A stretch of 64,000 nucleotides of DNA, taken from the NCBI GenBank assembly GCA_964417685.1, contig CAYQIT010000001.1, positions 145,157 through 209,156 of the forward strand, written 5' to 3'. This DNA comes from an uncultured Gammaproteobacteria bacterium (GTDB lineage: Bacteria; Pseudomonadota; Gammaproteobacteria; Magnimaribacterales; D2472). This document shows, one piece after another, positions 42,108 to 59,699 of the stretch. How positions within the stretch are numbered: position 1 is the stretch's first letter; the number at the start of each line of letters is the position of its first letter. The notes beneath the pieces are model-generated. The model was not told where the DNA came from. It saw only the letters and a program-made list of their open reading frames with translations, and searched no databases. Made by a program: the position numbers and the translations under genes.

Positions 42108-42551
42108 TTAGAAACTTGTTGTAAAGCTGTATCCTTTATCATTCTCTTGAATTGATAAATTTGAAACATTTTTTTCTAAAAGATTGGAGATTTCAGAAAC
42201 TTGATCAACTCCATCCTCTAATTTAACTACATTGAATGCAACTATAACCGAGCCATCAATAAATGATGTTTTGAGGTTGTAATAATTATTACTGGGTAGG
42301 TTTGATGACAAGAATTTATTTATCTCAGCCTCATCGTTAAGTTCTGTTATTTTCTTTTTAGAGACAGATTCAACTTTTTGTTTGACATATTCATAATCAG
42401 ATTTTGCTTTAATAAAATTAAATTTAGTTTGATTATATTCTGTTATAAATGAATTAATTGAAATCACTAATAACGTAAGAGCTATCAGGCCTATGGCAAC
42501 AAAGACTAGTTTTTTTTCCCTTTTATTTAAATTTAAAGAAAGCTTATTCAT
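42108..42551 (-). CDS. gspM: type II secretion system protein M
   Basis: 147 aa with a short basic N-terminus, one TM helix and a periplasmic domain. It is the last gene of the gsp operon and overlaps gspL by 8 nt. The call rests mainly on position and topology. Confidence 0.65.
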   Translation of the reverse strand: MNKLSLNLNKREKKLVFVAIGLIALTLLVISINSFITEYNQTKFNFIKAKSDYEYVKQKVESVSKKKITELNDEAEINKFLSSNLPSNNYYNLKTSFIDGSVIVAFNVVKLEDGVDQVSEISNLLEKNVSNLSIQENDKGYSFTTSF

Positions 42552-43680
42552 TTTTAAAGTTAATAGTTATAGTTCCCGTGGCACCGTCACCAGATTCAAT
42601 GATATTTTGATCAATAATTTTTACACCAAAGCTTTCTCCCATTGATAGAACTAACGACATCTGCATTGAAGGCATTTTTTCTATGTCAATAAGAGCGGTT
42701 GAAGATTCAAAATCTATATTAATTTTTTTTACAAACTTTCCACCAAGTCGATATATAAAATCAATATTGGGAAGTTCTTGTTTGTTATTAGTTGAAACAG
42801 TATCACCAATTAGGGCGTCAATTTGTGATCGTGGGTTTATTACTCTTGTTATTTTTGTTGATAAAGATGAAAAAATTCCAGAAGTGGCATCTTTATAAAT
42901 CTGAGTATTTCTATTTATATTATCAATAATCAAGTTTGGTAAAATCAATATTGCTATTAGGGATACTGAAAGAAATCCTAATTGGAGCTTTGTAAAATCC
43001 AATTTATTTAAAATACTTGATAGTGAATACTTAAAACTAAAGAGATTGGTATGTTGTTGATGTGAATTAAGAAAACTTAGATGGTATGAACCAATATCTT
43101 TGTAGGTAACTTTACCAAATATATCATCATCCTCAGACTCAAAAGAAATTATAGAAGGTTTGTAATCTTTATTGTTCTTTTTAACAATCTCAAGATATTC
43201 TTTTGCATATGATTTTTCTATAGATGTACCTGTTCTATCATGATGGGAAAAAATAACAGAGTCACCATGAATAACTATTGAGTCTTCTTTATTAATAAAC
43301 AATGAGTAGTCTGGATAAATATAAATCCTTGATTTAACTAAGCTTAAGGTTGCGTTTAGATAATTTATTAAATCTTTTTTAATTACAAAACCATTATTTT
43401 TTGAGGTTTTAACAAAAATTTCAGAAATATCTTCAACGATATTATCTTCAATGCTAGATATAAATACTGCATCAGAGTTCTTGTCTTCATTGCTTTGATT
43501 TGGATACGACGAAATAGCTGAGGATGGAATTAAAAATAATAATTTTGACTCTTCTTTTATTTCATCATGTATTTCTGATAATTGAATATTTTTTTTGTAG
43601 ATTAAATTGTTATCAGCATACTTGTATAAAACAATATCTGTATTCGAGTTAGTTGAGCTTTGTGCAATAAAATTTATCAT
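42544..43680 (-). CDS. gspL: type II secretion system protein L
   Basis: 378 aa with a cytoplasmic domain, one TM helix (LGFLSVSLIAILILPNLII) and a periplasmic domain. It sits between gspK and gspM. Confidence 0.7.
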   Translation of the reverse strand: MINFIAQSSTNSNTDIVLYKYADNNLIYKKNIQLSEIHDEIKEESKLLFLIPSSAISSYPNQSNEDKNSDAVFISSIEDNIVEDISEIFVKTSKNNGFVIKKDLINYLNATLSLVKSRIYIYPDYSLFINKEDSIVIHGDSVIFSHHDRTGTSIEKSYAKEYLEIVKKNNKDYKPSIISFESEDDDIFGKVTYKDIGSYHLSFLNSHQQHTNLFSFKYSLSSILNKLDFTKLQLGFLSVSLIAILILPNLIIDNINRNTQIYKDATSGIFSSLSTKITRVINPRSQIDALIGDTVSTNNKQELPNIDFIYRLGGKFVKKINIDFESSTALIDIEKMPSMQMSLVLSMGESFGVKIIDQNIIESGDGATGTITINFKNE

Positions 43681-44660
43681 TAAATGCCATTATAGTTTCT
43701 TGATAAAATATAGCCATTATTATTATTTTTAAAATAAATAATGCTTGATGAAGAGGCCTCAAATGACTCAACCTTTGAAGTTGTTTCTAAAATATAGATA
43801 TTAGATTTGAAGTCAATGCCAACCAAAGCTTCGCCAAAAGAAACGTCTTGATAATTAATATAAATTTCATTTATGTTTTTAAAACCAGAGTCCGGCATTG
43901 TTGCCAAAACATAGTTTGCATCATCAAGTGAGAGATCTTTAAATAATCCACTTAATAAAATTCCATCTTCTTTGGACAACATATTTAAATTAATTTTAAA
44001 ATTGTTTATAGGGTATGCACATAAATATTCTGAGAGGTTTGCCCAAGTCTCTCCCCTGAAGGATGGAATATTTTTTAGCTCATCCTTTGAATGAAACATT
44101 CTATTGTCTGTAAACTGTTGATTTGTATTTGATGGTCCTGTGTAGAAATAATCCTCTAGACCAGAACTCCTTGGCCTATTATCAGCATCAATCCAGTCTA
44201 TTATTTGGTCAATCATTTGAACTACATCTCTTTGATCAATCTCCAAATGAGCCATAATTTTTTTAAATACTTCTATGTGTTTAAGATCTGGGATGTAGGT
44301 ATCCTCATTTTTTTTTACTAAATTATTTACATTGAAACATGTTGAGGCATCAAATATTTCAGAAAAAATGTATCCCCTCTCATCTTCTAAGAAAATATTA
44401 TTTACAAACATTGAATTATTTTTTGAAATTATTTCAGAAAATGATATTTCTTGGCTAATCTTTTTCTTACCTAAAAACTCCATTCCTTTAAAAAGGTTTA
44501 ATGAATTTGATTGAAACTCAAGATAAGATGCTCTTTTAAGAGAAATGAAATAATTATTTCCAATTATTACCGCAATCGAAGAAAGCAAAAGGACTATCAG
44601 AAGAACTGACATAAGGACTACACCCCTATCCTTGGTATGCATAATCAATATTAGGGTCAA
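43680..44660 (-). CDS. gspK: type II secretion minor pseudopilin K
   Basis: RGVVLMSVLLIVLLLS N-terminus and the IDWIDADN..R..G.ED.FY motif typical of GspK. The start may be M7 (44642). Confidence 0.8.
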   Translation of the reverse strand: MTLILIMHTKDRGVVLMSVLLIVLLLSSIAVIIGNNYFISLKRASYLEFQSNSLNLFKGMEFLGKKKISQEISFSEIISKNNSMFVNNIFLEDERGYIFSEIFDASTCFNVNNLVKKNEDTYIPDLKHIEVFKKIMAHLEIDQRDVVQMIDQIIDWIDADNRPRSSGLEDYFYTGPSNTNQQFTDNRMFHSKDELKNIPSFRGETWANLSEYLCAYPINNFKINLNMLSKEDGILLSGLFKDLSLDDANYVLATMPDSGFKNINEIYINYQDVSFGEALVGIDFKSNIYILETTSKVESFEASSSSIIYFKNNNNGYILSRNYNGI

Positions 44661-45219
44661 TCAACCAAAAAAAATCTTTTTCGCCAATAGAAAAATCTAT
44701 TCTTATAAGCGTAGGTATTTTTTTTGAAGTAATTTCATCTAATGGCCATTTGTCATGCCATCTACGCTCATACATAAAAGAGAAATCAAGATTATCTAAG
44801 CCTTTAATTAGCTCAGATCTAGAATGGTCATCTTGGTTATAAGGACTTGATGAAAAGTATTGTTTGCGAACTAATGAATTATCATCAAGCAAATATTCAA
44901 CCCTATTAATATTCGATGATGATAAGGAAAGGTTTTTAATAGAAGTATTAAAAATTATAGAGTTCGATATTTGATCATAGTAAAAAGTTCCAGGAAGCAT
45001 ATCGCCATAAAAATCTCTAGAAGGTACATTTACTGTTTGCCTTATATCTCTTCTGATAATGCTCGAGGTAAGGCTGAGTTCTTTTATTTCATTAAGTTTA
45101 TTTGTAGATATTTCTTCTGATTCAAGTGCGGATGTTAGAATTTGTGAGCAAATTAAGCCTATTAAACTAAGTATAACTAGAGATACAAGAACCTCTATCA
45201 ATGTAAAACCTTTATTCAT
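44626..45219 (-). CDS. gspJ: type II secretion minor pseudopilin J
   Basis: Prepilin N-terminus MNKGFTLIEVLVSLVILSL (ATG at 45219). The track ORF extends to 45276, which would lengthen its overlap with the 3' end of gspI from 8 nt to 65 nt. Confidence 0.8.
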   Translation of the reverse strand: MNKGFTLIEVLVSLVILSLIGLICSQILTSALESEEISTNKLNEIKELSLTSSIIRRDIRQTVNVPSRDFYGDMLPGTFYYDQISNSIIFNTSIKNLSLSSSNINRVEYLLDDNSLVRKQYFSSSPYNQDDHSRSELIKGLDNLDFSFMYERRWHDKWPLDEITSKKIPTLIRIDFSIGEKDFFWLIDPNIDYAYQG

Positions 45220-45595
45220 TGATAATATAACCCTTTGTTTTATATATAGCATTTTTAGCGCCATCTCTCTTAACAATTATCTCGTATTCAAAAAACTCAT
45301 TTGATGAATTTTTTTCAATGACCTCCTCCCATCGCCAAACTTTATTACCCATCTTCATTATTCCGGTTCTTCTGGTTGCGTTATTTGGTTTTTGCATTGT
45401 ATTTATTAAAGCAACCCTATTGTTGGTAACCTCTTTAGCTAAATACCTATCTTCTAAGTACATAATAGAAGTAGTGTTAGAGATAATTACTTGATATATA
45501 GCAAGAATAGAAATACTTAAGACAACAAGAGATACTACAACCTCTATGAGACTAAAGCCTTTAGTATTGAATTTTTTTAACTTCCGTTTTTCCAT
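45212..45595 (-). CDS. gspI: type II secretion minor pseudopilin I
   Basis: Prepilin N-terminus ..KGFSLIEVVVSLVVLS, 127 aa. Confidence 0.8.
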   Translation of the reverse strand: MEKRKLKKFNTKGFSLIEVVVSLVVLSISILAIYQVIISNTTSIMYLEDRYLAKEVTNNRVALINTMQKPNNATRRTGIMKMGNKVWRWEEVIEKNSSNEFFEYEIIVKRDGAKNAIYKTKGYIINE

Positions 45596-46091
45596 TTTTA
45601 TTTATTTCTATTCTTTGAATAAAATCTTGTCTTTTTATATCTAAAGATCCCCCAGAATTTTCTCCAGATGGATAGAAAATAAGAAATGGAAATTTTAAAG
45701 AGCTATCATTATTAATCTCATAAACATTTCCATCAAAAGATCTGAAAACTTTTTCAAAGTTAATAAAATCTTTATAGCCTGATGAGGGCATATCAATAGA
45801 TGCATCAGATATCTTTAATCCATTTGAAGAGATGAAGTAGGCTTTATCAATATCTGGATTGGCATACCATCCAATGATATTTCCAGTTGTTATACTTTCT
45901 TCTGATAAAAATTCAAAAGTCTTTTCAAATGACTTTGCCTTAGCTTCAATTGAATTTAAAGTTGAAAAATTTAAAAATACTAGTGATGACATTAGTCCAA
46001 TAATGACTAGAGTCACCAGTAACTCAATAAGAGTAAAACCTTTAGATTTATTGTAACCAGTTGCCAATATCAGTATCCTCACCAGTTCCAC
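45561..46091 (-). CDS. gspH: type II secretion minor pseudopilin H
   Basis: Prepilin N-terminus ..KGFTLIELLVTLVIIGL. The track start is a GTG that overlaps gspG by 44 nt. An in-frame TTG at 46067 would give a more typical short leader, so the start is uncertain. Confidence 0.75.
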   Translation of the reverse strand: MELVRILILATGYNKSKGFTLIELLVTLVIIGLMSSLVFLNFSTLNSIEAKAKSFEKTFEFLSEESITTGNIIGWYANPDIDKAYFISSNGLKISDASIDMPSSGYKDFINFEKVFRSFDGNVYEINNDSSLKFPFLIFYPSGENSGGSLDIKRQDFIQRIEINKNGKTEVKKIQY

Positions 46092-46476
46092 CTTCTATAC
46101 CATCTGCGCCAAGAGTATAAAGATCAAAATTTCTAGATTTTTGTGGAGGATAAACATAAAGATAATCCCTTCCCCATGGGTCTTTTGGAATAGATGAAAT
46201 ATATCCACCATCTGGAAATAAAAATGGGTTTTTTAGATCAGAGTGAGGTGTTGTAAGTGCTTCAAGACCTTGAGATGTGTTTGGGTAAACAAGTTCATTA
46301 AATTTATATAACTCAAGAGCCTTAGAGGTCTGAGCAAAGTCAGCTTTAATTTTTTCAAGATTGGCCCTTTGAAATACAGGTGATACATTAACAACAACAA
46401 TGGTTGCAAGAATACCCAAAATTACCAAAACTGCCATTAATTCTATTAGAGTAAATCCTTTATTATATTTCTTCAT
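46048..46476 (-). CDS. gspG: type II secretion major pseudopilin G
   Basis: MKKYNKGFTLIELMAVLVILGILA plus the C-terminal DPWGRDYLY motif, 142 aa. Confidence 0.9.
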   Translation of the reverse strand: MKKYNKGFTLIELMAVLVILGILATIVVVNVSPVFQRANLEKIKADFAQTSKALELYKFNELVYPNTSQGLEALTTPHSDLKNPFLFPDGGYISSIPKDPWGRDYLYVYPPQKSRNFDLYTLGADGIEGGTGEDTDIGNWLQ

Positions 46477-46479
46477 ATT

Positions 46480-47676
46480 TTAACCCAATGAAAGTGTATT
46501 CATTTGCATGATAGGTAACAGTATAGCTAAGACTATCATCATTATAAAACCACCCATTACAATAATAACAATAGGCTCAAGCAAGGAAAGAAAAATTGAG
46601 CGCTTAGACTCAATTTCATTTTTCATAAATGATGATACCTTTAAGAACATTTTAGGTAAATTTCCTGATTTGTAGCCACTAGAAATTAATTGAACAAATA
46701 TATCTGGAAATATCTTACTTCTTATTAAAGAACCAACAAAATCCTTACCCTCTATAACCTCTTCTCTTGAAATTCTAATTTGATCTTTTAGATAATGGTT
46801 ATTAAAAACCTCAGAAGACTCATCTAAAGCCACATCAAGATTCATACCAGAGTTAAGCAATAAAGTCATCGTACTAGCAAATCTTTCAGTTTCAGTCAGT
46901 AATATAAAATTTCCAATTAGAGGGATTCCTAATATAAATTTATGAGCTTTTAAAAGGTTCAATTTAGAATTTGTATAATTTTTATATAGAAAAAACCCAA
47001 CTATTGAAAGAATAATAAAAATCAAACATATAAATAAAATATTATTAGAAATAAAAAGCAGTCCCTTTGTTAATAATGGTAACTCGGTACCAGATTTAAT
47101 GAATTGCCCAACAACTTGAGGGAGAACAAATGCAAGTAATGCAATAATCACTGAAATAGAAAAACCTACCAATATAATCGGGTAGGTTAAGGCTGAAATC
47201 ACTTTTTGTTTAATTTCTGCAGATTGTTCAAGATAATCAGCAAGATTATCAAAAATCTCGTCAAGATTTCCAGATGAATCACCAGCAGAAACAAGCGATG
47301 TATAAGTTTTATTAAAAACCCTTGGATAAGCCTTCATTGAATTACCCAACCTCTTGCCTTGAATGATATCTTCTCTAATATTGTATAAAATATTAGATAA
47401 ATCTTTATTACTTGACTGATCTGCGGTAATTTTTAAAGAATCATCAATTGAGGTGCTGGCGTCTAATAGTGTAGATAATTGTCTTGTCATAATAACAATA
47501 TCTTTATTTTTAACTTTGGTTTTATTAATAATTTTTGTATTTGTTACTCTGACTTCAAGAGGCGTTAGATTAAGATCTTTGACTAACTTTCGAGCTTCTC
47601 GCTCAGATTGAGCGCTTACATGCCCCCTCTTCTTTGCTCCCTTTATGTCAAATGCAATATAACTATAGGCTGGCAT
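46480..47676 (-). CDS. gspF: type II secretion inner-membrane platform protein F
   Basis: 398 aa with a duplicated GspF/PilC-type cytoplasmic domain and 3 TM helices. It sits between gspE and gspG. Confidence 0.9.
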   Translation of the reverse strand: MPAYSYIAFDIKGAKKRGHVSAQSEREARKLVKDLNLTPLEVRVTNTKIINKTKVKNKDIVIMTRQLSTLLDASTSIDDSLKITADQSSNKDLSNILYNIREDIIQGKRLGNSMKAYPRVFNKTYTSLVSAGDSSGNLDEIFDNLADYLEQSAEIKQKVISALTYPIILVGFSISVIIALLAFVLPQVVGQFIKSGTELPLLTKGLLFISNNILFICLIFIILSIVGFFLYKNYTNSKLNLLKAHKFILGIPLIGNFILLTETERFASTMTLLLNSGMNLDVALDESSEVFNNHYLKDQIRISREEVIEGKDFVGSLIRSKIFPDIFVQLISSGYKSGNLPKMFLKVSSFMKNEIESKRSIFLSLLEPIVIIVMGGFIMMIVLAILLPIMQMNTLSLG

Positions 47677-49168
47677 TCTCTTTAAGGTTATTAATTCTTA
47701 AAATTTCATCACAAGATGTTACACCAGTTTTAATTAAACTTATTGATGCTTGTTCTATAGAGTCATTATCTTGATCTTGAAAAGCGTAATCTTCTATATC
47801 GGCCTCTGAGGCATTATTATGTATCATTTCTCTCAGCTTTTTGTCTATATGTAAGCACTCCGCAATAGCAATTCTTCCTTTGTAACCAGAACCAAGACAT
47901 TCATCGCAACCTGTTGATGTGTAACACATGGTTCCTGTTTGAATATTTAAAGCAGTTAAGGTTTCTTCATCTGGATTGTCTTCTACTTTACAACTATTGC
48001 ATAGTCTTCTTACAAGCCTTTGAGCGATAATGGTTTTTAAACTAGAAGCTAATAAATAAGACTCAATACCCATATCCCTAAGCCTTGCAACAGCTGCTAC
48101 TGCGCTATTAGTGTGGACTGTAGATAGAACAAGATGTCCTGTGAGACTTGATTGAATACCAATTTGAGCGGTCTCTGCATCTCTCATCTCTCCAACCATG
48201 ACCACATCTGGATCCTGTCTTAAAATAGCTCTTAGACCTTTTGCAAAACTATATCCTGTTTTAGTGTTTACCTGAGTTTGTCCAATACCTCTTAATGTAT
48301 ATTCAATGGGGTCTTCTACTGTGAGAATATTTTGAGAAGAATCACTTAAGTATCTTAATCCAGCATATAAAGTTGTTGTTTTACCCGAACCCGTTGGTCC
48401 AGTGAATAAGATTATCCCTTCCGGGTTCTTTAATGATTTTTTATAATTTTTAAGGATTTTTTCTGGGAGACCTAAATCATCAATATTTATCTGCGCTGAT
48501 TGTTTATCAAGTATTCGCAGAACTATTCTTTCTCCATGAGATGATGGTAAAGAAGATACTCTAACATCAATACTCTTATCACCAAGCGATAATGAAACCC
48601 TGCCATCTTGAGGCAATCTTCTTTCTGAAATATCCAAACCCGACATTATTTTTAAACGTGAAATAAGAACTGAGGAAATTTTACTATCCTGAGCAAGAAC
48701 CTCTTTTAAAATACCATCAACTCTATATCTAACGACTATTTGGTCTTCATATGGTTCAAAATGGATATCTGATGCTCTAAGTTTTATAGCTTTACTTATA
48801 ATTCCATTAATCAATTTGATTATTGGAGCATCATCATTTCCACTTAATAGATCCTCGGTAGCAGAAATACTTCCTGCAAAGGATTCAAGATCAAAGGAGT
48901 CAGTTAATTCTTCTGAAATATCATTAGATACAGCTTCAGACGAGAAAATATTTGTTATATATTCATTAAATTCAGCAGAACTGCACCGTTTGATTGTGAA
49001 TGAAGAGCCTAGATATCTTTGAATTTCATGATACATATCTTTAGTAATATCATTTGGTGAAAGTATTTCTATTGGATCATTACCAGTAACTATTAGCTGA
49101 TGCTCTTTTATATATTCGTATGGGATAACTGAAAAAAGGTTTTCTTTATCCTTAAGTGAATCAAGCAT
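47663..49168 (-). CDS. gspE: type II secretion ATPase E
   Basis: Walker A GPTGSGKTTT, Asp/His boxes, and the tetra-Cys motif (CNSCK ... CDEC). Confidence 0.95.
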   Translation of the reverse strand: MLDSLKDKENLFSVIPYEYIKEHQLIVTGNDPIEILSPNDITKDMYHEIQRYLGSSFTIKRCSSAEFNEYITNIFSSEAVSNDISEELTDSFDLESFAGSISATEDLLSGNDDAPIIKLINGIISKAIKLRASDIHFEPYEDQIVVRYRVDGILKEVLAQDSKISSVLISRLKIMSGLDISERRLPQDGRVSLSLGDKSIDVRVSSLPSSHGERIVLRILDKQSAQINIDDLGLPEKILKNYKKSLKNPEGIILFTGPTGSGKTTTLYAGLRYLSDSSQNILTVEDPIEYTLRGIGQTQVNTKTGYSFAKGLRAILRQDPDVVMVGEMRDAETAQIGIQSSLTGHLVLSTVHTNSAVAAVARLRDMGIESYLLASSLKTIIAQRLVRRLCNSCKVEDNPDEETLTALNIQTGTMCYTSTGCDECLGSGYKGRIAIAECLHIDKKLREMIHNNASEADIEDYAFQDQDNDSIEQASISLIKTGVTSCDEILRINNLKENASL

Positions 49169-49171
49169 AAT

Positions 49172-51435: not shown

Positions 51436-51467
51436 AAAAAAATGAGCTACTAGTGTAGCTCATTTTT
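51436..51467 (-). terminator. intrinsic terminator between the TonB receptor and gspC
   Basis: The minus strand reads AAAAATGAGCTAC-ACTA-GTAGCTCATTTTTTT followed directly by the gspC ATG. The core stem ATGAGCTAC/GTAGCTCAT is 9 bp and is extendable by A:T pairs. Confidence 0.7.
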
Positions 51468-51476
51468 GACATGAAT

Positions 51477-54119
51477 TTAAAAACTAAATTTAAATCCTAA
51501 AGAAATAGATGTGCCTAAGCTATATTGATCATAAACAACTGCAGATGCCATTGAGGCATAGTATTCTTCATCTAATAAATTTCTTAGCTCTATAGAGACC
51601 TTTAGATCAGACATGTTGTAATTTAATTCTCTTGAATAAACAAAGTCTACTAGAAGTGGAGGTTCTTCAATAACATCGGGAAGAACATCAATACCCCTGG
51701 CTCTAACACGATCACTAACATAGTTAATAATCAGAGTTCCCTGCGAACCATTTTGTAAATCATCCCATCCAAGTTGTAAATTAGCGATTGTATCTGATTG
51801 GCCTTGAAGTCTTGTATCTCTTCCATTTAAAAACAATGAAGAAGCTTTTATAGCATTACCTTGGCTGTTTATAAATGTATCATCTTCATCGTAAACAACC
51901 TCTGATTTAGTAGATGTTAAGTTTGCTTTAAGAATAAATTCTTTTGAGCTAGCCCATTCAGAATCAACAAATAGATTTTCAAACACTCTTTCATACTCTA
52001 CTTCAAAACCAGTTAGTTCTGCTGCTGGTACATTCTGATAAGAGGTAACAATTAAATCACCTGACTCATTAACAACTTCTTCAATTGGTTTAGCTATATC
52101 TTTAAAGAAAACTCCAGCTGTTAAAAACTGATTTAGCCCCCAATAATATTCAAACCTTAGATCGAGATTGTCAATTTCAGAATTTTCTAAGTATAAAGAT
52201 CCTGCAATAACTCTATCAGTATCTACATCAATAAAGAGTGTTGGAGACAGCTCTCTAAATGTTGGTTTTGCAATTGTTTTTGACAAGCCTAATCTTATTT
52301 GTAAATTTTCATCAAAGGATGGTAAATAAGTAAGTGTAAATGATGGCAAGTTATAATTTTCATCGATAATTTTTTCAATATCGGAATCAATTGGTTGAAA
52401 GACATCATATGTGTTTACAAATTGCTTACCATCTTCTGATCTAATTCCAGCAGAAAGTCTATAATTTTCATTAAGATATGCATCCATGCTTATATAAAAA
52501 GCTGATGTTTCAAGAAGACCAGTATATCCTGCTGGAGATGAGGCTGCAGTATTTTCAATCACAAGAAGCCTTGATGGATCAAAGTTCTTATCTTCAAAAA
52601 TATAATCAATTCTATTAGCTAGAAATTCAGTAGGAATTGGCCCACCTTCTGCAAGAAATCTAAAACTTCGTACTTGAGCATCTCTAGTATTTTCAGTTGA
52701 ATCAGCTCCAAGTTTTAAAATAACTTCATTATCTGCAAGTTGAATTGGTAAGGTTAAATCAAAACCAAAATTTTCATTTTCATCCTCAACATAACTAAAC
52801 TGAGTTTGGTTTCTTCCTGTGTTCACATCATATCTCCAGAAACCTCTGTCATCTGTATCTTCATAAAAGACCACCCTCTCATAAGGTGAATTTCTTGAAG
52901 CATCGCCTGAAGTATATCTAAAATCAATTTCAGCATAATTATCGAATACATATGTTGCATTAAGTTGATGGTTGTTCAGCTCTCTTTCAAAAAATTCAAT
53001 AAAGTCTTCCCTTACATTACCGGCATCACTTGAGTCATACCCTTGAAGGATACGCGACCTTTTTGATCCCTTATGTATATACATTCCAGTATATTTAAGA
53101 CTATATGAATCTGCTTCTATACCAGCAACAGACATTGCATAGGTAGTAACATCATTTGATGTGCTCCTAAAGGTCTTGTTATTAGATACGATTACCGATG
53201 ATGTTCCATCTCCTTGAGCTTGCAATGTTCCTGTTTGTCTTAAACCTTCTTGAGAGTCCCATGAGCTTCTTATGCCCGAGGTGAACATTAGCCCAAATAC
53301 AGCACTATTATCATTCAAGATTTTATCTATACCAATGTCTATTTCGTCTCCATATGTAAAATTTAAAGAACTATCTAGAGGTACTTCTCCCTCTTGTATA
53401 ACCCAAAGCTCTGAATTTACAAATTCTCTTCCAGCATTTGATAATTCAAATGTTTTAAAATTTGAGCGGTCAAGTTTTTTATTTTGATTTATAGCAGACT
53501 TTACAAAGTCAGGGAAATCTCTTAAACCATCATCATATCCAAACTTATCATCATCACTTCCGTCATATAACAAACCATCTTTTAAACTTGTTGCATCATT
53601 AAAGCCAGATGAAAATGAGAAATCTAAAACTCTATCAGCTGGAACAGCTTTTGTTTCTATTTCAATTATACCTCCACCAAATTCTCCGGGCATATCTGCC
53701 GAGTATGTTTTCTGAACAACAGAATTAGCAATGATTTGAGTAGGAAATAAATCTAACGGAACCACTCTTTTGAGGGGCTCTGGACTTGGAAGATTGGATC
53801 CATTCAATGTTGCAGCTGAATATCTCTCTCCTAAACCCCTTACATAAACATATTTACCTCTAACTAAACTTAAACCTGTAAGCCTAGTAAGTGCAACTGC
53901 AATATTATCATCACCAGTTCTTTCTATCTCTGATGAATCTAGGATTGAAGATATCTCTGATGTGTCTCTTTTTTCATCAGGTATAAAAGAGCCACTTACA
54001 ACTACTTCTTCAATTTCTTGAGAAGTGGCTGTAAGTGATAGACCGAGCATCAAAGATAACATAGTCATTAGTATTAAGTTTGATCTTTGGAACTTGAATT
54101 TATATTTTAAAATTGTCAT
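51477..54119 (-). CDS. TonB-dependent receptor
   Basis: The likely start is MTILKYKF..LSLTATS|QEIEEVVV (ATG at 54119, GGAG SD upstream). The track ORF extends to 54215 into the upstream gene. It has a plug, a barrel and the terminal ..SISLGFKFSF. Confidence 0.85.
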   Translation of the reverse strand: MTILKYKFKFQRSNLILMTMLSLMLGLSLTATSQEIEEVVVSGSFIPDEKRDTSEISSILDSSEIERTGDDNIAVALTRLTGLSLVRGKYVYVRGLGERYSAATLNGSNLPSPEPLKRVVPLDLFPTQIIANSVVQKTYSADMPGEFGGGIIEIETKAVPADRVLDFSFSSGFNDATSLKDGLLYDGSDDDKFGYDDGLRDFPDFVKSAINQNKKLDRSNFKTFELSNAGREFVNSELWVIQEGEVPLDSSLNFTYGDEIDIGIDKILNDNSAVFGLMFTSGIRSSWDSQEGLRQTGTLQAQGDGTSSVIVSNNKTFRSTSNDVTTYAMSVAGIEADSYSLKYTGMYIHKGSKRSRILQGYDSSDAGNVREDFIEFFERELNNHQLNATYVFDNYAEIDFRYTSGDASRNSPYERVVFYEDTDDRGFWRYDVNTGRNQTQFSYVEDENENFGFDLTLPIQLADNEVILKLGADSTENTRDAQVRSFRFLAEGGPIPTEFLANRIDYIFEDKNFDPSRLLVIENTAASSPAGYTGLLETSAFYISMDAYLNENYRLSAGIRSEDGKQFVNTYDVFQPIDSDIEKIIDENYNLPSFTLTYLPSFDENLQIRLGLSKTIAKPTFRELSPTLFIDVDTDRVIAGSLYLENSEIDNLDLRFEYYWGLNQFLTAGVFFKDIAKPIEEVVNESGDLIVTSYQNVPAAELTGFEVEYERVFENLFVDSEWASSKEFILKANLTSTKSEVVYDEDDTFINSQGNAIKASSLFLNGRDTRLQGQSDTIANLQLGWDDLQNGSQGTLIINYVSDRVRARGIDVLPDVIEEPPLLVDFVYSRELNYNMSDLKVSIELRNLLDEEYYASMASAVVYDQYSLGTSISLGFKFSF

Positions 54120-54153: not shown

Positions 54154-57099
54154 CTATTGGACTTCAATAGTTCCAGAGAGTGTCCAGTTTTTATACCAAT
54201 CATCGGTTGCTCCACTAACAGCTCCTATGTATGAGGTAGTTTCAAAGAAACCATCGGCGTTATAAATACTTGGAATAGAGGTAACAGTAGCCGAATTTTC
54301 TGCAGAGCCATTAACAACTCCAATTACAGTATTTACATAACTCCCGCCACCTGAATTTGATCCATACAAGTTATTAGAACCAGCCCTTACTATTGCTTCA
54401 ACTTCAGCAGTTGTTGCATTACCATCAGTTTTAATAAAGCCTGAGCAATCCAATGCTACAGAATTCATTGAGAAGACTGGCGTAACAGCACCATCCTTAA
54501 CAGTTTCGTTAAAAGTAGTTTCTATACAATTAGTTTCTTTTCCAGTCACCGAGCTATTTACAACTGCAATCCCGTTGAAGTACTGACCAGATACACCTTC
54601 CTTAAGCTTAAATATCTCATCATGTCCTTTAGAAATAAAAGTAAAATTAGAAACTATTGGGTTTGAACGAGGTTCAGATAAATAACCAACAGCGCTGTCA
54701 CTGTTTACATTATCAGATTCGACAATATGATCTCCTTTGTCATTAGACTGTTGGACAATGACATACTGGATTCTGCCAGTGTAACCCCAGTCAATATCTA
54801 AATTATCATCATCGGCACCGGTACAAATTAGATGTTTAACATCAACAGTGCCACCAAAAAACTCAACGCAGTCATCAGCATTGTTGTGAACTTGTACATA
54901 ATCAACGCTTGTTCCTGACCCAACACCTCCGAATGTAATTCCATTTAGCTCATTTCCTGGAAATACTTCGTATCCAGCATATTGAACCCTTAGATATTTT
55001 AAAGAACCGCTGCTATCAGTTGGACTCTCACCACCCATCATGTCACCGGCAGATCCTTCTACCTCTCTTTCACATGGGTCTACTCTTACACCAGCTGCAG
55101 TTGCAGTTCCGCCTTGTGTGTATGCGCATTTGTTTATAGGTGCTCTACCAAGTAGAACTAATCCACCCCAAAGACCTCTAGTACTAACAATATCTGCCTC
55201 TCCAAGAAGATCTTGTTTACCAGTCATTATGATTGGTGCTGATGCTGTTCCTACTGCATTAATTTTTGACCCTCTTTTAATAACTAAATAATCATTACCA
55301 GACTCTCCAAATAAAGTTACGCCTGGTTCAATTGTTAATACTGCAGCAATACCTCCAGAAGCATCACCGGATGAGCCTAAGTCCTTACCAACAGCAACCT
55401 TCCCGTCAATTTTATAGTAGTTTCCAGATACCAATGTTAAGTCTGAGGTTATCTCTCCCTGCAAGCTGCAAACCTTTTTTCCAAGCAGTACTTCAGATTC
55501 AAGAGTACCCTCAGGACACTCAGGATCAGTAAACAATCCTATAGTCCAACCTGATGCCCAGTTATTCTCTAAATCAGAACCAGGAGAAAATGCACCGATA
55601 TAATCAGTTGCAGAGAACCAAGTATTAATAGTGTAGTTACCATCATCAAACCCAGGACATAATTCTGTAGTTTCACCTGCAGAATGAATACCAACTGCAC
55701 ACATAGCATCAATTTTGTTTATATTGAATGCAGAAGTAACAGCTGATTCAGCTTCACCTAAAAAGAAATCTGATACAAGAGTAGAGGTACCTAAAACTAG
55801 ATCTGTTGATCTCTCAATTAAAGATGCCTGAAGCTCTTCTGCTGTAACACCACTAGATTCTGTATCAGCCTTAAATGGTGATGTATCTCCAGCTGAATCC
55901 ATAAAGATAGAGTGATGTTGAATTTTAGGGGTAATTAGACCATCTTGAATAGTTTCCAGGTTTGTTGATTCAACTAAATTTTGTGAATTAGCATTTTTAA
56001 CAATTCCGTTAATATATACACCTGAAACACCTTCTTTGTATTTTAAAGGCTCATCAGCGCCTTGTGCTAAGAAAGTAAAATTTGCAACCATTGGTCTTGA
56101 CCTTGGCTCAGTTAAATAACCAACAGATGCATCTGCATTAGTATTATCGGACTCTACAACATGATCACTTTGATCAGAACTTTGTTTTACAACAACATAT
56201 TGCATTTTACCTTGGTAACCCCAATCGATATCAAGATTGTCATCACCTGCATTTGTACAAACCAAGTGCTTAACATTTACAGTTCCGCCAAAAAACTCAA
56301 CGCAATCATCTTGGTTGTTATGTACCTGAATATAATCGACCACTGTCGCGGATCCAACAGCGCCAAATGTAATACCATTTAACTCATTACCAGGAAATAT
56401 TTCATAACCTGCGTATTCAACCCTTACAAAATTTAACTTACCTGAATTATCATCAGCTAGAGTTCCACCCATAAGCGCATTAGAACCTTCAACAACTTTT
56501 TCACAAGCAGCTGTTCCTCTAACATCATTTGAACATTTGTTTATTGGAGCTTTACCAAGTATGACTATACCGCCCCATAAACCTCTTTCAAGCTCTCCAA
56601 CACTTCCCTCAATAGCTGTGTTATGTGTAAATCTTATTGGTTTAGACCTTGTACCATTAGCTATAATTTGTGAGCCTCTATTTACAACAAGGTAGTCATT
56701 TGAAGTTTTACCCATTATCACTACGCCAGCAGGAATAGTTAACTTACCAGCAGCTCCACCTGCTTTTGTTCCATCTCCACCCATATCAGAACCGACCTCA
56801 ACCTTACCAAGCATTCTGTACATAACATCATCAGTTAATGTTAGATCTTCTGTAATAACACCAGAAATAGCACAAACGGTATTACCTGCAACAGGTGATC
56901 CATTTGTTATATAAGTTGAGTTAGGACATTCTCCAGTTAATATAGAACTTGATGAGCCTCCTGTACCGCCCCCACCAGTAGGGTCAGTTAATGGGCCTTG
57001 TTCACCTGGTGAAACAATAGAAGTGCTTGAGCCACCACAAGACACTAATATGATTGAAATAGTTAATAAATAAAGTTGATTAAGTTTGTTATGTAACAT
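54154..57099 (-). CDS. large outer-membrane lipoprotein made of two tandem ~460-aa units, function unknown (beta-helix-like)
   Basis: Signal peptide and lipobox IILVSC with Gly at +2, and a GGAGGA SD. Two homologous units carry LWGG.V.LG.APINKC, YAGYE.FPGNELNGITFG, DDCVEFFGGTV.VKH, DDNLDIDWGY and ESDN. No named family recognised. Confidence 0.8.
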   Translation of the reverse strand: MLHNKLNQLYLLTISIILVSCGGSSTSIVSPGEQGPLTDPTGGGGTGGSSSSILTGECPNSTYITNGSPVAGNTVCAISGVITEDLTLTDDVMYRMLGKVEVGSDMGGDGTKAGGAAGKLTIPAGVVIMGKTSNDYLVVNRGSQIIANGTRSKPIRFTHNTAIEGSVGELERGLWGGIVILGKAPINKCSNDVRGTAACEKVVEGSNALMGGTLADDNSGKLNFVRVEYAGYEIFPGNELNGITFGAVGSATVVDYIQVHNNQDDCVEFFGGTVNVKHLVCTNAGDDNLDIDWGYQGKMQYVVVKQSSDQSDHVVESDNTNADASVGYLTEPRSRPMVANFTFLAQGADEPLKYKEGVSGVYINGIVKNANSQNLVESTNLETIQDGLITPKIQHHSIFMDSAGDTSPFKADTESSGVTAEELQASLIERSTDLVLGTSTLVSDFFLGEAESAVTSAFNINKIDAMCAVGIHSAGETTELCPGFDDGNYTINTWFSATDYIGAFSPGSDLENNWASGWTIGLFTDPECPEGTLESEVLLGKKVCSLQGEITSDLTLVSGNYYKIDGKVAVGKDLGSSGDASGGIAAVLTIEPGVTLFGESGNDYLVIKRGSKINAVGTASAPIIMTGKQDLLGEADIVSTRGLWGGLVLLGRAPINKCAYTQGGTATAAGVRVDPCEREVEGSAGDMMGGESPTDSSGSLKYLRVQYAGYEVFPGNELNGITFGGVGSGTSVDYVQVHNNADDCVEFFGGTVDVKHLICTGADDDNLDIDWGYTGRIQYVIVQQSNDKGDHIVESDNVNSDSAVGYLSEPRSNPIVSNFTFISKGHDEIFKLKEGVSGQYFNGIAVVNSSVTGKETNCIETTFNETVKDGAVTPVFSMNSVALDCSGFIKTDGNATTAEVEAIVRAGSNNLYGSNSGGGSYVNTVIGVVNGSAENSATVTSIPSIYNADGFFETTSYIGAVSGATDDWYKNWTLSGTIEVQ
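54157..56931 (-). repeat. intragenic tandem duplication (unit A nt 55531-56931, unit B nt 54157-55521)
   Basis: Unit A covers aa ~57-523 and unit B aa ~527-981, and they align end to end. In the 115-aa core from YAGYE to NFTF I count 88 identical positions by eye. Confidence 0.85.
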
Positions 57100-57189
57100 T
57101 AAAAAAATCCTCCAATGGGTTGATGGACTTTATTTAAATATTTATCTATGAAGGTTTGATTAAGAAGATGTTAAAAGAAGAAACAAATA

Positions 57190-57236
57190 GGTAACAAATT
57201 ATTACGAATGTTACATATGTTACATATGTTACAAAT
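57190..57236. promoter_or_regulatory. tandem 9-bp repeat array (ATGTTACAT)n, candidate response-regulator binding site
   Basis: GGTAACAAATTATTACGAATGTTACATATGTTACATATGTTACAAATC. TGTTACA starts at 57209, 57218 and 57227. A degenerate copy TATTACG is at 57200 and an inverted copy GGTAACA at 57190. The array lies between the kinase stop and the lipoprotein start. Confidence 0.5.
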
Positions 57237-57244
57237 CTAATTTA

Positions 57245-59002
57245 CTAGTATTTTGGAAGGGTAAACCAAAAGTTACATCCATTTATACTTGAGTTCTTTA
57301 GGCCAACGTCACCACTTAAGCTATGCACCAAATTCTTTACTATAGCTAAACCCAAGCCACTTCCAGTTGCATCAGAAGCTCGTGCTTGAGCAGTTCTGAA
57401 AAACCTTCCAAAAATTAAATCCTTATCTGCAATATCTATACCCTGACCTTTATCAATAATATTAACCTCTATATTTTTTTCAGAATTTTTAAAAAGAATT
57501 TCTACTGAAGAGTTTGAAGGACTATACTTTATTGCGTTATCAATTAAGTTTATAAGTATTCTTTCCAAAGCTTTTGAATCTGCTCTAACAAATAGATCTA
57601 AGTTTTCATTAAAACTAAAAGATATGTTTTTTTTTGCTGCTAGCCCACTTAGAGAATCTAAAACCTTTAATATAGATTGATTCAAATTAATTTTCTCAAA
57701 ATTTAGTTTTAATTCACCATATTCTATTCTTGATAGATCAATGAGATCAGAAACCATTTCAGAAAGTCTTTGAGCATTATGCAAAATAGCAGTTGAAAAC
57801 ATTTTTGCATCTTCTCTATTATCCAAAGCACCATTCAACAAAGTTTCAGAATTTGCCCTAATAACACTTACAGGTGTCCTCAATTCATGAGAAACATTTG
57901 ATATAAAATCCCTCCGCATGGAATCTAGCTTTCTTAATTGAGTTATGTCATGAACTACCAATATAAATTCTTTTGTTGATTTGGATTGATTTATGGAACC
58001 AAGAACCCATCTGGTTTTTCCATTACCTATATCAATCTCAAATTCCTTATCAGCTTTTTTCTTTTTACTAGCTGTTTCATACAAGTTTAAAATTGGGGTT
58101 ATAGGGATATCTTCAAGACGAGATTTTTCAATATTTTCTAGATTTAAAATTAATAAAGCTTGATCGTTATTAAAAGTTACTTCGGCTGATTCGTTAAAAA
58201 CAATAATACCTTCACCTAAATCATCCAAAACTGATCCAAATTGATTTCTTTGTTTTGCAATTAGCCTTACTTGGGTTTTTAATTTATCTGAAATTTGAGA
58301 AATACTCCTTGCCACATTACCAAACTCATCAACTCTTTGAGTGGGAAGAGCTTTTAAAGCTTTTCTCTTCAATGGAGTATCTGCTAAAGAAGAGACTGCA
58401 TCATCAAGCTCAGATAAATTTCTATATGTATAGTTAGAAGATAGTGTGCTAGTTATCATAGCAACAAAAAATGCCACTACTGCTATTAATAGTATTGAAA
58501 TATCTAAGCTTGCAATTACCCTATCGAGATAGGTATAAGGTACTGCTATTCTAATAATATTAGGTTTTTCTTCATTGTTATCAAGAATAGCAAAATATAA
58601 AAGTTGCTCGTTGGTTGTGTTACTGTATCTTGAAGACCAGCCTGTTCCAAAAGAGAGAGCGTCTATTACCTCTTTTCTATTACTGTGATTATCTAAACTT
58701 GCAATAAGATCAATGGGAACTCCTGAGTCACCAATAACACTTCCATCATTAAGAATAAGAGTGACTCTTGAATCAGAAGCATTCCCAAGCCTGTCTGCAA
58801 GTGAGTCAGATGCCGTTACACCTTTCAATGAATCAATTTCATCAATATTTTCAACAAGAAGTTTTGCTTGTTTCTCAAGCTGATAGACAATTTGCTCTTC
58901 AAATGTGTTAGTAATATCTCTTTCTGCGATAGTGTAAGCAATGCTTATGCTCACTCCAAGTGAAAGAAATACTATTAAAAATACTCGGGATCTTATACCC
59001 AT
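57245..59002 (-). CDS. sensor histidine kinase with periplasmic domain (PhoR-like)
   Basis: TM1 at aa ~6-24, a ~140-aa periplasmic domain, TM2 at aa ~166-186. A linker/PAS-like region is followed by the H-box SHELRTP, the N-box DNAIKYS, and the G-boxes DKGQGI and GSGLGLAIV. Confidence 0.9.
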   Translation of the reverse strand: MGIRSRVFLIVFLSLGVSISIAYTIAERDITNTFEEQIVYQLEKQAKLLVENIDEIDSLKGVTASDSLADRLGNASDSRVTLILNDGSVIGDSGVPIDLIASLDNHSNRKEVIDALSFGTGWSSRYSNTTNEQLLYFAILDNNEEKPNIIRIAVPYTYLDRVIASLDISILLIAVVAFFVAMITSTLSSNYTYRNLSELDDAVSSLADTPLKRKALKALPTQRVDEFGNVARSISQISDKLKTQVRLIAKQRNQFGSVLDDLGEGIIVFNESAEVTFNNDQALLILNLENIEKSRLEDIPITPILNLYETASKKKKADKEFEIDIGNGKTRWVLGSINQSKSTKEFILVVHDITQLRKLDSMRRDFISNVSHELRTPVSVIRANSETLLNGALDNREDAKMFSTAILHNAQRLSEMVSDLIDLSRIEYGELKLNFEKINLNQSILKVLDSLSGLAAKKNISFSFNENLDLFVRADSKALERILINLIDNAIKYSPSNSSVEILFKNSEKNIEVNIIDKGQGIDIADKDLIFGRFFRTAQARASDATGSGLGLAIVKNLVHSLSGDVGLKNSSINGCNFWFTLPKY

Positions 59003-59006
59003 TTTA

Positions 59007-59699
59007 TCAATCAGATGTTCTTGTAAATTTATATCCTACACCGCGAATAGTCTGAACATATTTTCCGATTGGACCAAGCTTTTCTCTCAATCTCTTAATA
59101 TGTGTGTCAACTGTTCTGGTTGTTATATCAGCACTATAACCCCAAACATCTGAAAGAAGCTGATCTCTTGTTTGAACCCTTCCTCGACGATCTACAAGTT
59201 GCTGGAGAAGCCTAAATTCAAGTGCTGTTAATGTTACTTCTTTATTATCTACAAAAACTTCATGGGACTCTACATCTATTTTGAGCTCACCAAACTCCCT
59301 ATCAATTTCCATAACATCATGTTTGGTTACGTTTCTTTTTAAAATTGCTTTGATTCTAAGAATTAGTTCACGAACACTAAATGGTTTAGTTACATAATCA
59401 TCTGCTCCAAGCTCAAAACCAACAACTTTATCAACCTCATCATCTTTAGCTGTAAGAATTATGATTGGTATATCTTTAAGAGATTTATCTGATTTAATTT
59501 TTCTGCAAAAATCCAATCCCGATCCATCTGGAAGCATTAAATCAAGTAATATTAATGAAATGTTGTTAGCTGCTATTAAGTTTTCTGAATCTGATAAATT
59601 GCCAGCAGATAAAGTCTGAAAATTATCTTTATGAAGGTTGTACTCCAGAGTTTTTCTTATATCAGGTTCATCTTCAACAATTAAGATCGTATTAGTCAT
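59007..59699 (-). CDS. OmpR/PhoB-family response regulator
   Basis: Receiver domain (ILIVEDE, LLDLMLPD, TAKD, TKPF) plus a winged-helix DNA-binding domain (..TVDTHIKRLREKL.. TIRGVGYKF). It lies 4 nt upstream of the kinase gene. Confidence 0.9.
   Translation of the reverse strand: MTNTILIVEDEPDIRKTLEYNLHKDNFQTLSAGNLSDSENLIAANNISLILLDLMLPDGSGLDFCRKIKSDKSLKDIPIIILTAKDDEVDKVVGFELGADDYVTKPFSVRELILRIKAILKRNVTKHDVMEIDREFGELKIDVESHEVFVDNKEVTLTALEFRLLQQLVDRRGRVQTRDQLLSDVWGYSADITTRTVDTHIKRLREKLGPIGKYVQTIRGVGYKFTRTSD

Follow-up and report, generated by a model that had tools for sequence, protein, structure and literature searches.

An ElpS-type lipoprotein-TonB receptor pair, a type II secretion gene cluster, and a PhoB/PhoR-like system in one probably phosphate-linked block of a SAR86 genome

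In Caulobacter crescentus, the surface lipoprotein ElpS (cc0170, ~50 kDa) and the TonB-dependent receptor (TBDR) cc0171 are encoded immediately upstream of the type II secretion system (T2SS) genes gspC-N (PMC2996285). Phosphate starvation induces ElpS, which has its anchor at the cell surface, depends on the T2SS for its release, and is associated with extracellular alkaline phosphatase activity; elpS, cc0171, and the gsp genes were reported to differ in their regulation (PMC2996285). The same arrangement has already been noted in Xanthomonas, Sphingopyxis, and Hyphomonas (PMC2996285), the PhoB regulon of Caulobacter takes in the T2SS together with a phytase and several TBDRs (PMC11208175), and the Xanthomonas xcs T2SS cluster carries the ElpS homolog XAC0692 (review PMC7777525). 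Here, we describe a related block at positions 42108 to 59699 of a 64,000-nucleotide stretch of contig CAYQIT010000001.1 (the window), from an uncultured SAR86 gammaproteobacterium, in which an ElpS-type lipoprotein gene, a TBDR gene, and gspCDEFGHIJKLM stand downstream of genes for a two-component system resembling PhoB and PhoR. The block probably encodes an outer membrane uptake unit induced through the phosphate (Pho) response together with a T2SS, where the ElpS-type protein would act as a lid or catcher, the TBDR would import, and the T2SS would secrete phosphorus-scavenging factors or a releasing protease. The proposal rests on what the sequence shows, namely, which genes are present, what they are homologous to, where their linkage is conserved, and how the candidate regulatory sites read.

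Two further descriptions are close to this locus. The phoBR cluster “PUSIV” of Flavobacterium johnsoniae includes the TonB-dependent transporter (TBDT) Fjoh_0545 and the ElpS-related lipoprotein Fjoh_0546, both induced at low phosphate with log2 fold changes of 8 to 10, and the lipoprotein is abundant in the exoproteome (PMC8115612). Low-phosphate-inducible loci of Flavobacterium were reported to be tightly repressed under nitrogen and iron limitation (PMC8115612). The BT4056 family, in turn, has been proposed to form lids on non-SusC TBDTs, and in 621 genera the proximity of the two is kept (bioRxiv 10.1101/2023.03.17.533168). An initial annotation of the window, made from its letters without database searches (the sequence-only reading), knew of no named system with such an arrangement. 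That statement was wrong, given the ElpS-TBDR-T2SS clusters published for Caulobacter and Xanthomonas (PMC2996285 and PMC7777525), their place in the PhoB regulon (PMC11208175), the Flavobacterium cluster of phoBR with a TBDT and a lipoprotein (PMC8115612), and the idea of TBDT lids (bioRxiv 10.1101/2023.03.17.533168), and the phosphate theme went unrecognized in it.

The block consists of 15 minus-strand open reading frames (ORFs) in succession in the ORF listing of the window, which has a G+C content of ~33%. Intergenic gaps measure 4, 145, 34, 41, 2, and 3 nt, and all remaining junctions overlap. The features described in the sequence-only reading were confirmed at their stated coordinates: the 15 co-oriented genes, a 145-nt gap holding a 9-mer array with all other gaps at 41 nt or less, a 981-amino-acid (aa) duplicated lipoprotein next to an 880-aa TBDR, and a strong hairpin with a U-tract before gspC were all recovered.

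The 981-aa protein (54154 to 57099, minus strand) was assigned to the ElpS family of surface lipoproteins by homology, its lipobox, and a beta-helix model. It begins with a lipoprotein signal sequence ending in the lipobox LVSC (...ISIILVSC-GGSS), followed by a Gly/Ser/Thr/Pro-rich tether of ~35 aa. A long flexible tether after the lipid-modified cysteine is typical of surface lipoproteins. Two modules, at approximately residues 55 to 526 and 527 to 981, share 51% identity. By BLASTP, residues 527 to 973 aligned to protein P0226 of Caulobacter sp. with 40% identity (E, 5e-89), and residues 75 to 528 aligned to the same protein with 37% identity (E, 2e-75). P0226 (Caulobacter sp. NIBR1757) and P0416 (a C. 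vibrioides strain) occupy the position of ElpS, ahead of a TBDR gene and gspC, and both are single-module PF28492 proteins of 487 to 489 aa. Because the single-module Caulobacter protein aligns to each half, the window protein is, by alignment, a tandem two-module ElpS homolog, where ElpS identity was taken from synteny in the Caulobacter sp. and C. vibrioides strains and CC_0170 of strain CB15 itself lay outside the alignment. In Hyphomonadaceae and Alteromonadales, most forms of the protein likewise have two modules. Homologs at 60 to 99% identity in SAR86 genomes and single-cell assemblies place the source bacterium in SAR86 (Magnimaribacterales).

All homologs, including the 99%-identical P0001, carry a precomputed PF28492 (Beta_helix_4) annotation. 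The window protein itself had no match in NCBIfam or in a Pfam copy without the PF28492 model. The motifs NELNGITFGGVGSGT, HNNxDDxVEFFGG, and DDxLDxDxGYxG are invariant in each half across distant taxa. An AlphaFold2 model of the C-terminal module gave a right-handed parallel beta-helix with a mean predicted local distance difference test score (pLDDT) of 81 and a predicted template-modeling score (pTM) of 0.87. All top Foldseek matches in the PDB were beta-helix proteins, comprising phage tailspikes, GH87 and GH28 enzymes, and alginate/pectate lyases, at E values of at least 2.8e-3 and template-modeling (TM) scores of at most 0.3. The modeled fold class, a right-handed beta-helix, is clear, and no activity can be inferred from it. 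Assigning an enzymatic function from the structural matches was considered and rejected, as these are weak and generic to beta-helix proteins.

One homolog, P0361 (637 aa; locus L090, 4338 to 6251), has a partial N-terminal PstS-like PBP_like_2 fragment, and its neighbors encode PstB-like, PHO4, PhoU_div, and TBDR proteins, which is again a phosphate-related context. The apparent PstS fusion was rejected as evidence of phosphate binding, since the fragment is partial and probably a gene-call artifact.

The partner TBDR (51477 to 54119, minus strand) is encoded 34 nt downstream in the same orientation. Its 880 aa are counted from the ATG that yields a signal peptide, and its C terminus (...GFKFSF) ends in phenylalanine, an aromatic residue as expected of a TBDR. 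The Plug domain scored 29 bits in Pfam. Residues 48 to 880 aligned to positions 18 to 868 of the 868-position model TIGR01782 (TonB-Xanth-Caul) with 180 bits, below the subfamily cutoff of 310. Although SAR86 is a gammaproteobacterium, the window TBDR was closer to T2SS-linked alphaproteobacterial versions (mean, 35% identity and 465 bits) than to unlinked, mostly gammaproteobacterial versions (31% and 344 bits). Identity of the lipoprotein to the two groups was nearly equal (38% versus 37%). The closeness of the TBDR to T2SS-linked versions is a hint of possible joint inheritance, or joint transfer, of the pair with the T2SS.

To survey how the parts of the block are linked elsewhere, one genome per species was scanned, yielding 80 loci onto which the window proteins were mapped by tblastn; three loci fetched earlier brought the set to 83. 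A homologous TBDR gene was directly downstream of the lipoprotein gene in 71 of them. Among the 12 loci without an adjacent TBDR gene, nine had little or no downstream sequence, two from Bacteroidota had the reverse order of TBDR then lipoprotein (L061, Melioribacter; L062, Bacteroides caecigallinarum), and one (L081) had a TBDR homolog ~6 kb further downstream. The genes gspD, gspE, gspF, and gspG directly followed the pair in 16 of the 21 alphaproteobacterial loci with enough flanking sequence, including Hyphomonadaceae, Oceanicaulis, Maricaulis, Hirschia, and Kordiimonas. A T2SS also followed it in two of five SAR86 loci and in one of 39 other, mostly gammaproteobacterial, loci. A PhoB-like regulator gene (at least 38% identity, at most 5 kb upstream) had the complementary distribution, with 13/39 gammaproteobacterial, 4/5 SAR86, and 0/20 alphaproteobacterial loci. 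Both links occurred together only in the SAR86 clade of the window (the window, L005, L006, L085, L088, and L089). In another SAR86 clade (complete genome CP097974), the regulator, kinase, Ppx, PPK2, the pair, the TBDR-phytase operon, and PitA are all together, with the TBDR-phytase operon adjoining the lipoprotein-TBDR pair (L001/L002). A Ppx gene is near the pair in Hyphomonadaceae and Rheinheimera as well. The comparison of neighborhoods that the sequence-only reading had called for thus found linkage in relatives, both of the pair to the T2SS and of the pair to the regulator, and supports the view from sequence that lipoprotein, TBDR, T2SS, and regulator are not a chance juxtaposition.

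The two-component system opens the block. The response regulator (59007 to 59699, minus strand, 230 aa) has the Response_reg and Trans_reg_C domains of the OmpR family in Pfam, and its top NCBIfam model, aligned over its full length, was PhoB (TIGR02154). It is 40 to 43% identical to the regulators encoded upstream of the lipoprotein-TBDR pair in gammaproteobacterial loci. The sensor kinase (57245 to 59002, minus strand, 585 aa) has HisKA and HATPase_c domains, and its top NCBIfam models were PnpS, WalK, and PhoR, none of which reached its cutoff. Transmembrane segments at residues 7 to 25 and 162 to 180 enclose a periplasmic stretch of ~136 aa, with a subthreshold sCache_like match at residues 37 to 140 (24.3 bits; cutoff, 27). 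The Bacteroidota PhoR model also aligned to the full length of the kinase, below its cutoff, and the periplasmic domain is likewise Bacteroidota-like. At the equivalent place in another SAR86 clade (L002, 5889 to 7241) is a 450-aa kinase with 34% identity to that of the window. In the two other gammaproteobacterial loci checked, from Rheinheimera and Alteromonas, the regulator and kinase beside the pair passed the NCBIfam PhoB and PhoR equivalog cutoffs, and the Rheinheimera phoBR genes are near ppk1 and ppx.

Of special interest for regulation is the 145-nt gap between the kinase and lipoprotein genes (57100 to 57244), which contains a Pho-box-like heptamer array (57179 to 57233, minus strand). 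The array consists of three TGTAACAta units at 9-bp spacing, followed by CGTAATA, TGTTACC, and TGTTTCT at 9, 10, and 11 bp. The 9-mer repeat within it (57208 to 57233) comprises 2.9 copies with 100% match and a Tandem Repeats Finder score of 52. TGTAACA was found 24 times in the window against 10.7 expected, a count reached in 0 of 100 shuffles. The repeat TGTAACATA is present in three copies in the window and two in the 99%-identical L085 (9876 to 9893), and the 92%-identical L087 (1521 to 1545) also has heptamers 9 bp apart; SAR86 relatives at greater distance have the canonical 11 bp. Recent slippage was considered as a full explanation of the array and proved only partly right: copy number varies at 99% identity, but 9-bp phasing is kept at 92%. 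Judged from these variants, the repeat may be a strain-variable tuning element.

Pho-box heptamers were present in the promoters of all six SAR86 relatives examined. In four of these relatives (L002, L004/L005, and L088), the TGTAACA heptamer upstream of the orthologous gene has the canonical 11-bp phasing, as in TGTAACAtaaaTGTAACAtttaTGTAACAtttaCGTCAAA of CP097974 and TGTCACAaataTGTCACAtttaTGTTTCAtaaaTGTAATA of L088. In the window, a canonical Pho box, TGTAACAcaatTGTCACA (38389 to 38406, minus strand), is upstream of a TBDR-phytase operon and is the only perfect TGTMACA-N4-TGTMACA match in the 64 kb. That operon (34640 to 38359) encodes a second TBDR (35789 to 38359, minus strand) and a beta-propeller phytase (34640 to 35731, minus strand). 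Between it and the block are genes for PitA/PHO4 (39055 to 40305, minus strand), PPK2 (40408 to 41247, plus strand), and Ppx/GppA (41249 to 42106, plus strand), all of them, like the operon genes, assigned by Pfam. A glycerophosphodiester phosphodiesterase (GDPD) gene (30036 to 30779) is also near the block. No Pho box was found before the GDPD gene at a tolerance of 2 mismatches. Because the heptamers, the canonical boxes, the PhoB model of the regulator, and the flanking PitA, PPK2, Ppx, and GDPD genes all point the same way, Pho control is the most likely reading of the sequence for the lipoprotein-TBDR operon. The proposal that the adjacent two-component system controls the pair is plausible in view of the candidate Pho-box heptamers in the gap.

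These data also bear on a carbon-oriented alternative, a SusCD-like glycan system in which the lipoprotein is a beta-helix glycanase or lyase and the kinase senses glycan through its Cache domain. It would account for the right-handed beta-helix, whose nearest structures are polysaccharide-active tailspikes, GH87, GH28, and alginate/pectate lyases, for the invariant acidic motifs DDxVEFFGG and DDxLDxDxG, for the Cache-like periplasmic domain, and for a regulator and kinase that score under the PhoB and PhoR cutoffs. It is at odds with the heptamers in every SAR86 promoter examined, the bona fide PhoBR beside the pair in Rheinheimera and Alteromonas, the phosphate genes next to the block, the low TM scores of the structural matches (at most 0.3), and the induction of the Caulobacter and Flavobacterium homologs by low phosphate (PMC2996285 and PMC8115612). 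We regard a glycan system of this kind as very improbable; a phosphorylated-glycan ligand would merge the glycan and phosphate readings.

The T2SS genes, all on the minus strand, follow the TBDR gene. The first encodes a short, PDZ-less GspC of 135 aa (51028 to 51435), with a transmembrane segment at residues 10 to 28 and a weak T2SSC match of 20.9 bits that is below the cutoff; the equivalent Caulobacter gspC genes encode 148 to 149 aa and match T2SSC only. Next are gspD (49172 to 51025), a secretin gene with N0 and Secretin_N domains, gspE (47663 to 49168; T2SSE, 469.6 bits), and gspF (46480 to 47676; T2SSF, 188.3 bits). The major pseudopilin gene gspG (46048 to 46476; T2SSG) precedes those for the minor pseudopilins, gspH (45561 to 46091; TIGR01708, below its cutoff), gspI (45212 to 45595; T2SSI), gspJ (44626 to 45276; T2SSJ), and gspK (43680 to 44660; T2SSK_1st). 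N_methyl matches were obtained among the pseudopilins in the Pfam and NCBIfam scans, and the starts of gspH, gspJ, and gspK are uncertain by a few codons. A divergent gspL (42544 to 43680, 378 aa) has one transmembrane segment (residues 234 to 252) and no direct match in Pfam, NCBIfam, or the PDB. It was recognized through its homologs, as an exhaustive HMMER search placed GspL_C in 14 of 26 aligned homologs and T2SSL in one of the 26. The last ORF (42108 to 42551, 147 aa) is a probable gspM by position, size, and a transmembrane segment at residues 15 to 33 only, with no family match in Pfam, NCBIfam, or the PDB.

Describing this T2SS as complete, as the sequence-only reading did, holds only for gspC to gspM. 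The block contains no gspN and no gene for a prepilin peptidase (GspO), although the whole window was not scanned for Peptidase_A24. In the related loci L085 (1 to 2119), L088, and L089 (both 1023 to 1877), a Peptidase_A24 gene is ~8 kb upstream of the lipoprotein gene, and two AMP-binding genes and a gamma-glutamyltranspeptidase gene stand between the two. By analogy with these loci, GspO is probably encoded in the genome but outside the block, and its gene would lie just past the 3′ end of the window. Near its A24 peptidase gene, L085 also has a weak match to a PhoD-like phosphatase, the equivalent of which would fall just beyond the 3′ end of the window, and by the same analogy the PhoD-like protein is a candidate T2SS cargo. 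A paper on SAR86 isolates makes no mention of secretion systems or of this cluster (PMC11582366).

Between the TBDR gene and gspC, folding revealed a terminator- or attenuator-like hairpin with a U-tract (51438 to 51467, minus strand). It has 13 pairs (4 of them G-C), a 4-nt loop, seven U residues, a folding free energy of −18.1 kcal/mol, and a z score of −5.8. The hairpin takes up nearly the whole 41-nt gap, and its U-tract runs into the gspC ATG. Because the hairpin abuts this ATG, there is no room for a promoter between it and gspC, and every T2SS transcript must therefore pass through the hairpin. The stem TGAGCTA...TAGCTCA is kept in L005, L006, and L088, where flanking proteins are 76 to 82% identical and the surrounding intergenic sequence has diverged; the U-tract has only 4 U in L005 and L006. 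A repetitive extragenic palindromic (REP)-like element was rejected, as the hairpin is unique in the window. In the high-GC loci L084 and L003, scanning simply for terminators gave no match upstream of gspC as far as the TBDR gene, but stem-loops were seen there once the intergenic sequence was folded. Strong stem-loops are present 3′ of the TBDR gene in Caulobacter sp. and one Hyphomonadaceae genome, each with a spacer before gspC. From its sequence, the hairpin resembles an intrinsic terminator or attenuator, and it fits an attenuator that would set a low T2SS level relative to the pair.

A hairpin at this position could also mean that a general T2SS merely lies beside a Pho-regulated pair, with a terminator between them and no functional coupling. 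Consistent with this, a strong and conserved terminator-like structure divides two units, no Pho box was found near gspC, and Caulobacter T2SS genes are expressed in rich and poor media alike (PMC2996285). Such independence is nevertheless quite unlikely: SAR86 and 16/21 alphaproteobacterial loci, although far apart in evolution, have the same gene order, the start of T2SS transcripts must be placed upstream of the hairpin for want of promoter room before the gspC ATG, and the Caulobacter T2SS is in the PhoB regulon (PMC11208175).

Several observations weigh against a Pho-induced unit of lid, TBDR, and T2SS. The PhoB match of the regulator (246 bits) is under its cutoff of 296, and the kinase reached 227 bits against PhoR TIGR02966, where the cutoff is 334. 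Proteobacterial PhoR has no substantial periplasmic domain and signals through PstSCAB and PhoU, unlike the window kinase with its sizeable periplasmic domain. At the window promoter, a spacing of 10 to 11 bp is limited to degenerate heptamers; the perfect ones have a 9-bp spacing, which does not fit the canonical head-to-tail PhoB dimer. A different dimeric regulator could occupy the array, TGTNACA being partly self-complementary. No Pho box was found near gspC. The beta-helix is without a close solved relative, given the best Foldseek E value of 2.8e-3, TM scores of at most 0.3, and a PDB profile search of the lipoprotein family that returned nothing at E values up to 1. In the CP097974 clade of SAR86, the pair has no T2SS within 10 kb downstream. 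Finally, deletion of gspC-N in Caulobacter left ElpS on the surface and blocked only its release, and cc0171 was reported to be constitutively expressed (PMC2996285).

With respect to sensing, no pst or phoU genes are present in the 64-kb window. According to the paper on SAR86 isolates, Pit belongs to the core genes, whereas Pst is confined to a subset of the genomes (PMC11582366), and because of this restricted distribution, Pst-independent phosphate sensing in SAR86 is conceivable.

How the lipoprotein reaches the surface is a point where the T2SS could have a more direct part, translocating the lipoprotein itself as in the PulA and MtrC cases and serving as a dedicated lid exporter. This role is compatible with the Pho-induced uptake unit. 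It is close to the hypothesis of the sequence-only reading, in which the T2SS would export one or more factors, possibly the giant lipoproteins or hydrolases such as the GH81 enzyme or the phytase, for capture by the lipoprotein-receptor pair. It would be in keeping with tightly co-oriented, adjacent lipoprotein, TBDR, and T2SS genes in two bacterial classes, with a window TBDR closer to T2SS-linked alphaproteobacterial versions than to unlinked ones (35% versus 31%; mean bits, 465 versus 344), and with the long tether after the lipid-modified cysteine, as in surface lipoproteins. It would also fill a gap left by the lid preprint, which calls the export route of ElpS-type lids outside Bacteroidota unclear (bioRxiv 10.1101/2023.03.17.533168). 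Direct export still appears unlikely, because Caulobacter cells lacking gspC-N kept ElpS on the surface (PMC2996285) and because the pair has no T2SS beside it in one SAR86 clade and in the majority of gammaproteobacterial loci.

For the favored Pho-induced uptake unit, the parts suggest the following sequence of events. At low phosphate, the kinase with its periplasmic Cache-like domain would phosphorylate the PhoB-like regulator, which would bind the TGTAACA heptamers in the 145-nt gap and turn on the lipoprotein-TBDR bicistron; the canonical box of the TBDR-phytase operon is probably a further binding site of this regulator. The lipoprotein would be lipidated and displayed on the surface by its Gly/Ser-rich tether, as published ElpS and BT4056 work suggests, and its two beta-helix modules, given that work and the fold, may sit over the TBDR as a substrate-capturing lid. 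The substrate that this lid would bind, and might also cleave, would carry phosphorus, would probably be polyanionic or resemble a glycan, and would be imported by the TBDR. The hairpin would keep T2SS mRNA low relative to the pair and still coupled to upstream transcription, and the T2SS, by homology, would secrete exoenzymes that scavenge phosphorus or, as reported for Caulobacter, a protease by which the lipoprotein is released. A bolder version would make the ElpS-linked T2SS a dedicated partner of the lid and transporter, serving display, turnover, or release of the lid, so that the three would make up a single apparatus in which uptake is coupled to secretion. The clade of the window would have a self-contained form of it: a PhoR-like kinase would sense phosphate directly through its periplasmic Cache domain, in a lineage that often lacks Pst; the Pho-box array, with its variable copy number and noncanonical 9-bp phasing, would tune expression from strain to strain; and the hairpin, as an attenuator, would set how much T2SS is made relative to lid and transporter. 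We consider this stronger version rather unlikely.

The remainder of the window contains other nutrient-related genes. The phytase here fits a periplasmic role better than secretion, because it shares an operon with its own TBDR. Divergent from that operon is a 195-aa ORF (38464 to 39051) with a weak TetR_N-like match, and the intergenic region with the Pho box is common to both. A dimeric repressor could also use the Pho box site before the phytase operon, because TGTNACA is partly self-complementary. A HIT-family gene (32415 to 32756) is near the GDPD gene, and with a Na+-dependent nucleoside transporter gene (12347 to 13573) these two strengthen the impression of a region given to nutrient scavenging. 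Positions 25858 to 28885 contain the gene for a P-II nitrogen regulator and, after it, a tandem pair of ammonium transporter genes (26207 to 27439 and 27608 to 28885), and gamma-glutamyltranspeptidase genes are found at 4142 to 5845 (complete) and 63171 to 64000 (cut by the window end). A 1,216-aa GH81-domain protein (385 to 4035) is a lipoprotein as well. Its N terminus, with LLVSCGGGGGGGS and then a Pro/Ser/Thr linker, closely resembles the N terminus of the ElpS-like lipoprotein; by sequence, it is a candidate for a second surface-tethered enzyme.

SAR86 bacteria are among the most abundant in the surface ocean and have streamlined genomes. The genome of one complete SAR86 relative is 1.19 Mb, so the 17.6-kb block represents more than 1% of a genome spent on a Pho-linked lid, transporter, and secretion module. 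That a streamlined genome devotes such a share to the module suggests that ElpS-type systems have a substrate of importance as a source of phosphorus in the sea. The module, known from studies of Caulobacter and Flavobacterium, is now extended to a lineage of the oligotrophic ocean, which supplies natural variants for experiments: a lid with two modules, Pho boxes phased at either 9 or 11 bp, and a hairpin directly joined to gspC.

Compared with known systems, the block is most similar to the Caulobacter ElpS cluster. Caulobacter sp. and C. vibrioides share its order and orientation of lipoprotein, TBDR, and gspCDEFG..., matching cc0170-cc0171-gspC, as well as a homologous lipoprotein (37 to 40% identity per window module), a short PDZ-less GspC, a stem-loop 3′ of the TBDR gene, and a phosphate starvation context. 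The SAR86 lipoprotein differs in having two modules (981 aa versus ~490 aa), and SAR86 adds a co-oriented PhoB/PhoR-like system upstream, where none of 20 alphaproteobacterial loci has a PhoB-like regulator. The SAR86 hairpin abuts the gspC ATG, whereas Caulobacter sp. has a spacer of ~85 nt after the stem-loop, and the SAR86 block is without gspN and has no adjacent gspO.

Likened by its published description, Flavobacterium PUSIV also has PhoR/PhoB beside a TBDT and an ElpS-related lipoprotein of pectin lyase fold, in a cluster that is likewise among phytase-TBDT and PitA-type phosphate genes. The phosphate theme is common to both, and the published genes are strongly induced at low phosphate. 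In PUSIV, however, the TBDT precedes the lipoprotein and there is no T2SS; Bacteroidota surface lipoproteins use other export routes. The pair BT4055/BT4056 of Bacteroides thetaiotaomicron shares the lipoprotein family, as BT4056 is reported to be homologous to ElpS, and the conserved proximity to a non-SusC TBDT, with the lipoprotein proposed on the outer face of the barrel and the published order being TBDR then lipoprotein. That BT4056 acts as a lid is itself predicted, and few of the contacts that AlphaFold-Multimer modeled for that pair were confident.

The Xanthomonas Xcs system, again likened by description, is a T2SS cluster with an ElpS homolog that is thought to serve adaptation to nutrient stress and is described as the closest relative of the Caulobacter T2SS (PMC7777525). 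It differs in that no adjacent phoBR has been reported. The Hxc T2SS of Pseudomonas aeruginosa is induced by low phosphate, secretes the alkaline phosphatase LapA, and serves phosphate acquisition. To our knowledge, no ElpS-TBDR pair is involved with Hxc, and its likeness to the block, a T2SS under phosphate limitation control, is one of analogy rather than membership. Hxc is also mentioned in the review of T2SS clusters cited above (PMC7777525).

The block is, in sum, the SAR86 version of a known ElpS-TBDR-T2SS/phoBR phosphate starvation module and no new kind of system. Linkage to phoBR and linkage to a T2SS, each known until now from separate reports, occur here in one co-oriented block, the first case found. 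Specific to this clade, and perhaps worth attention, are also the Cache-type PhoR-like kinase, the 9-bp-phased Pho-box array whose copy number varies, the direct joining of the hairpin to gspC, and a full T2SS in a streamlined SAR86 genome.

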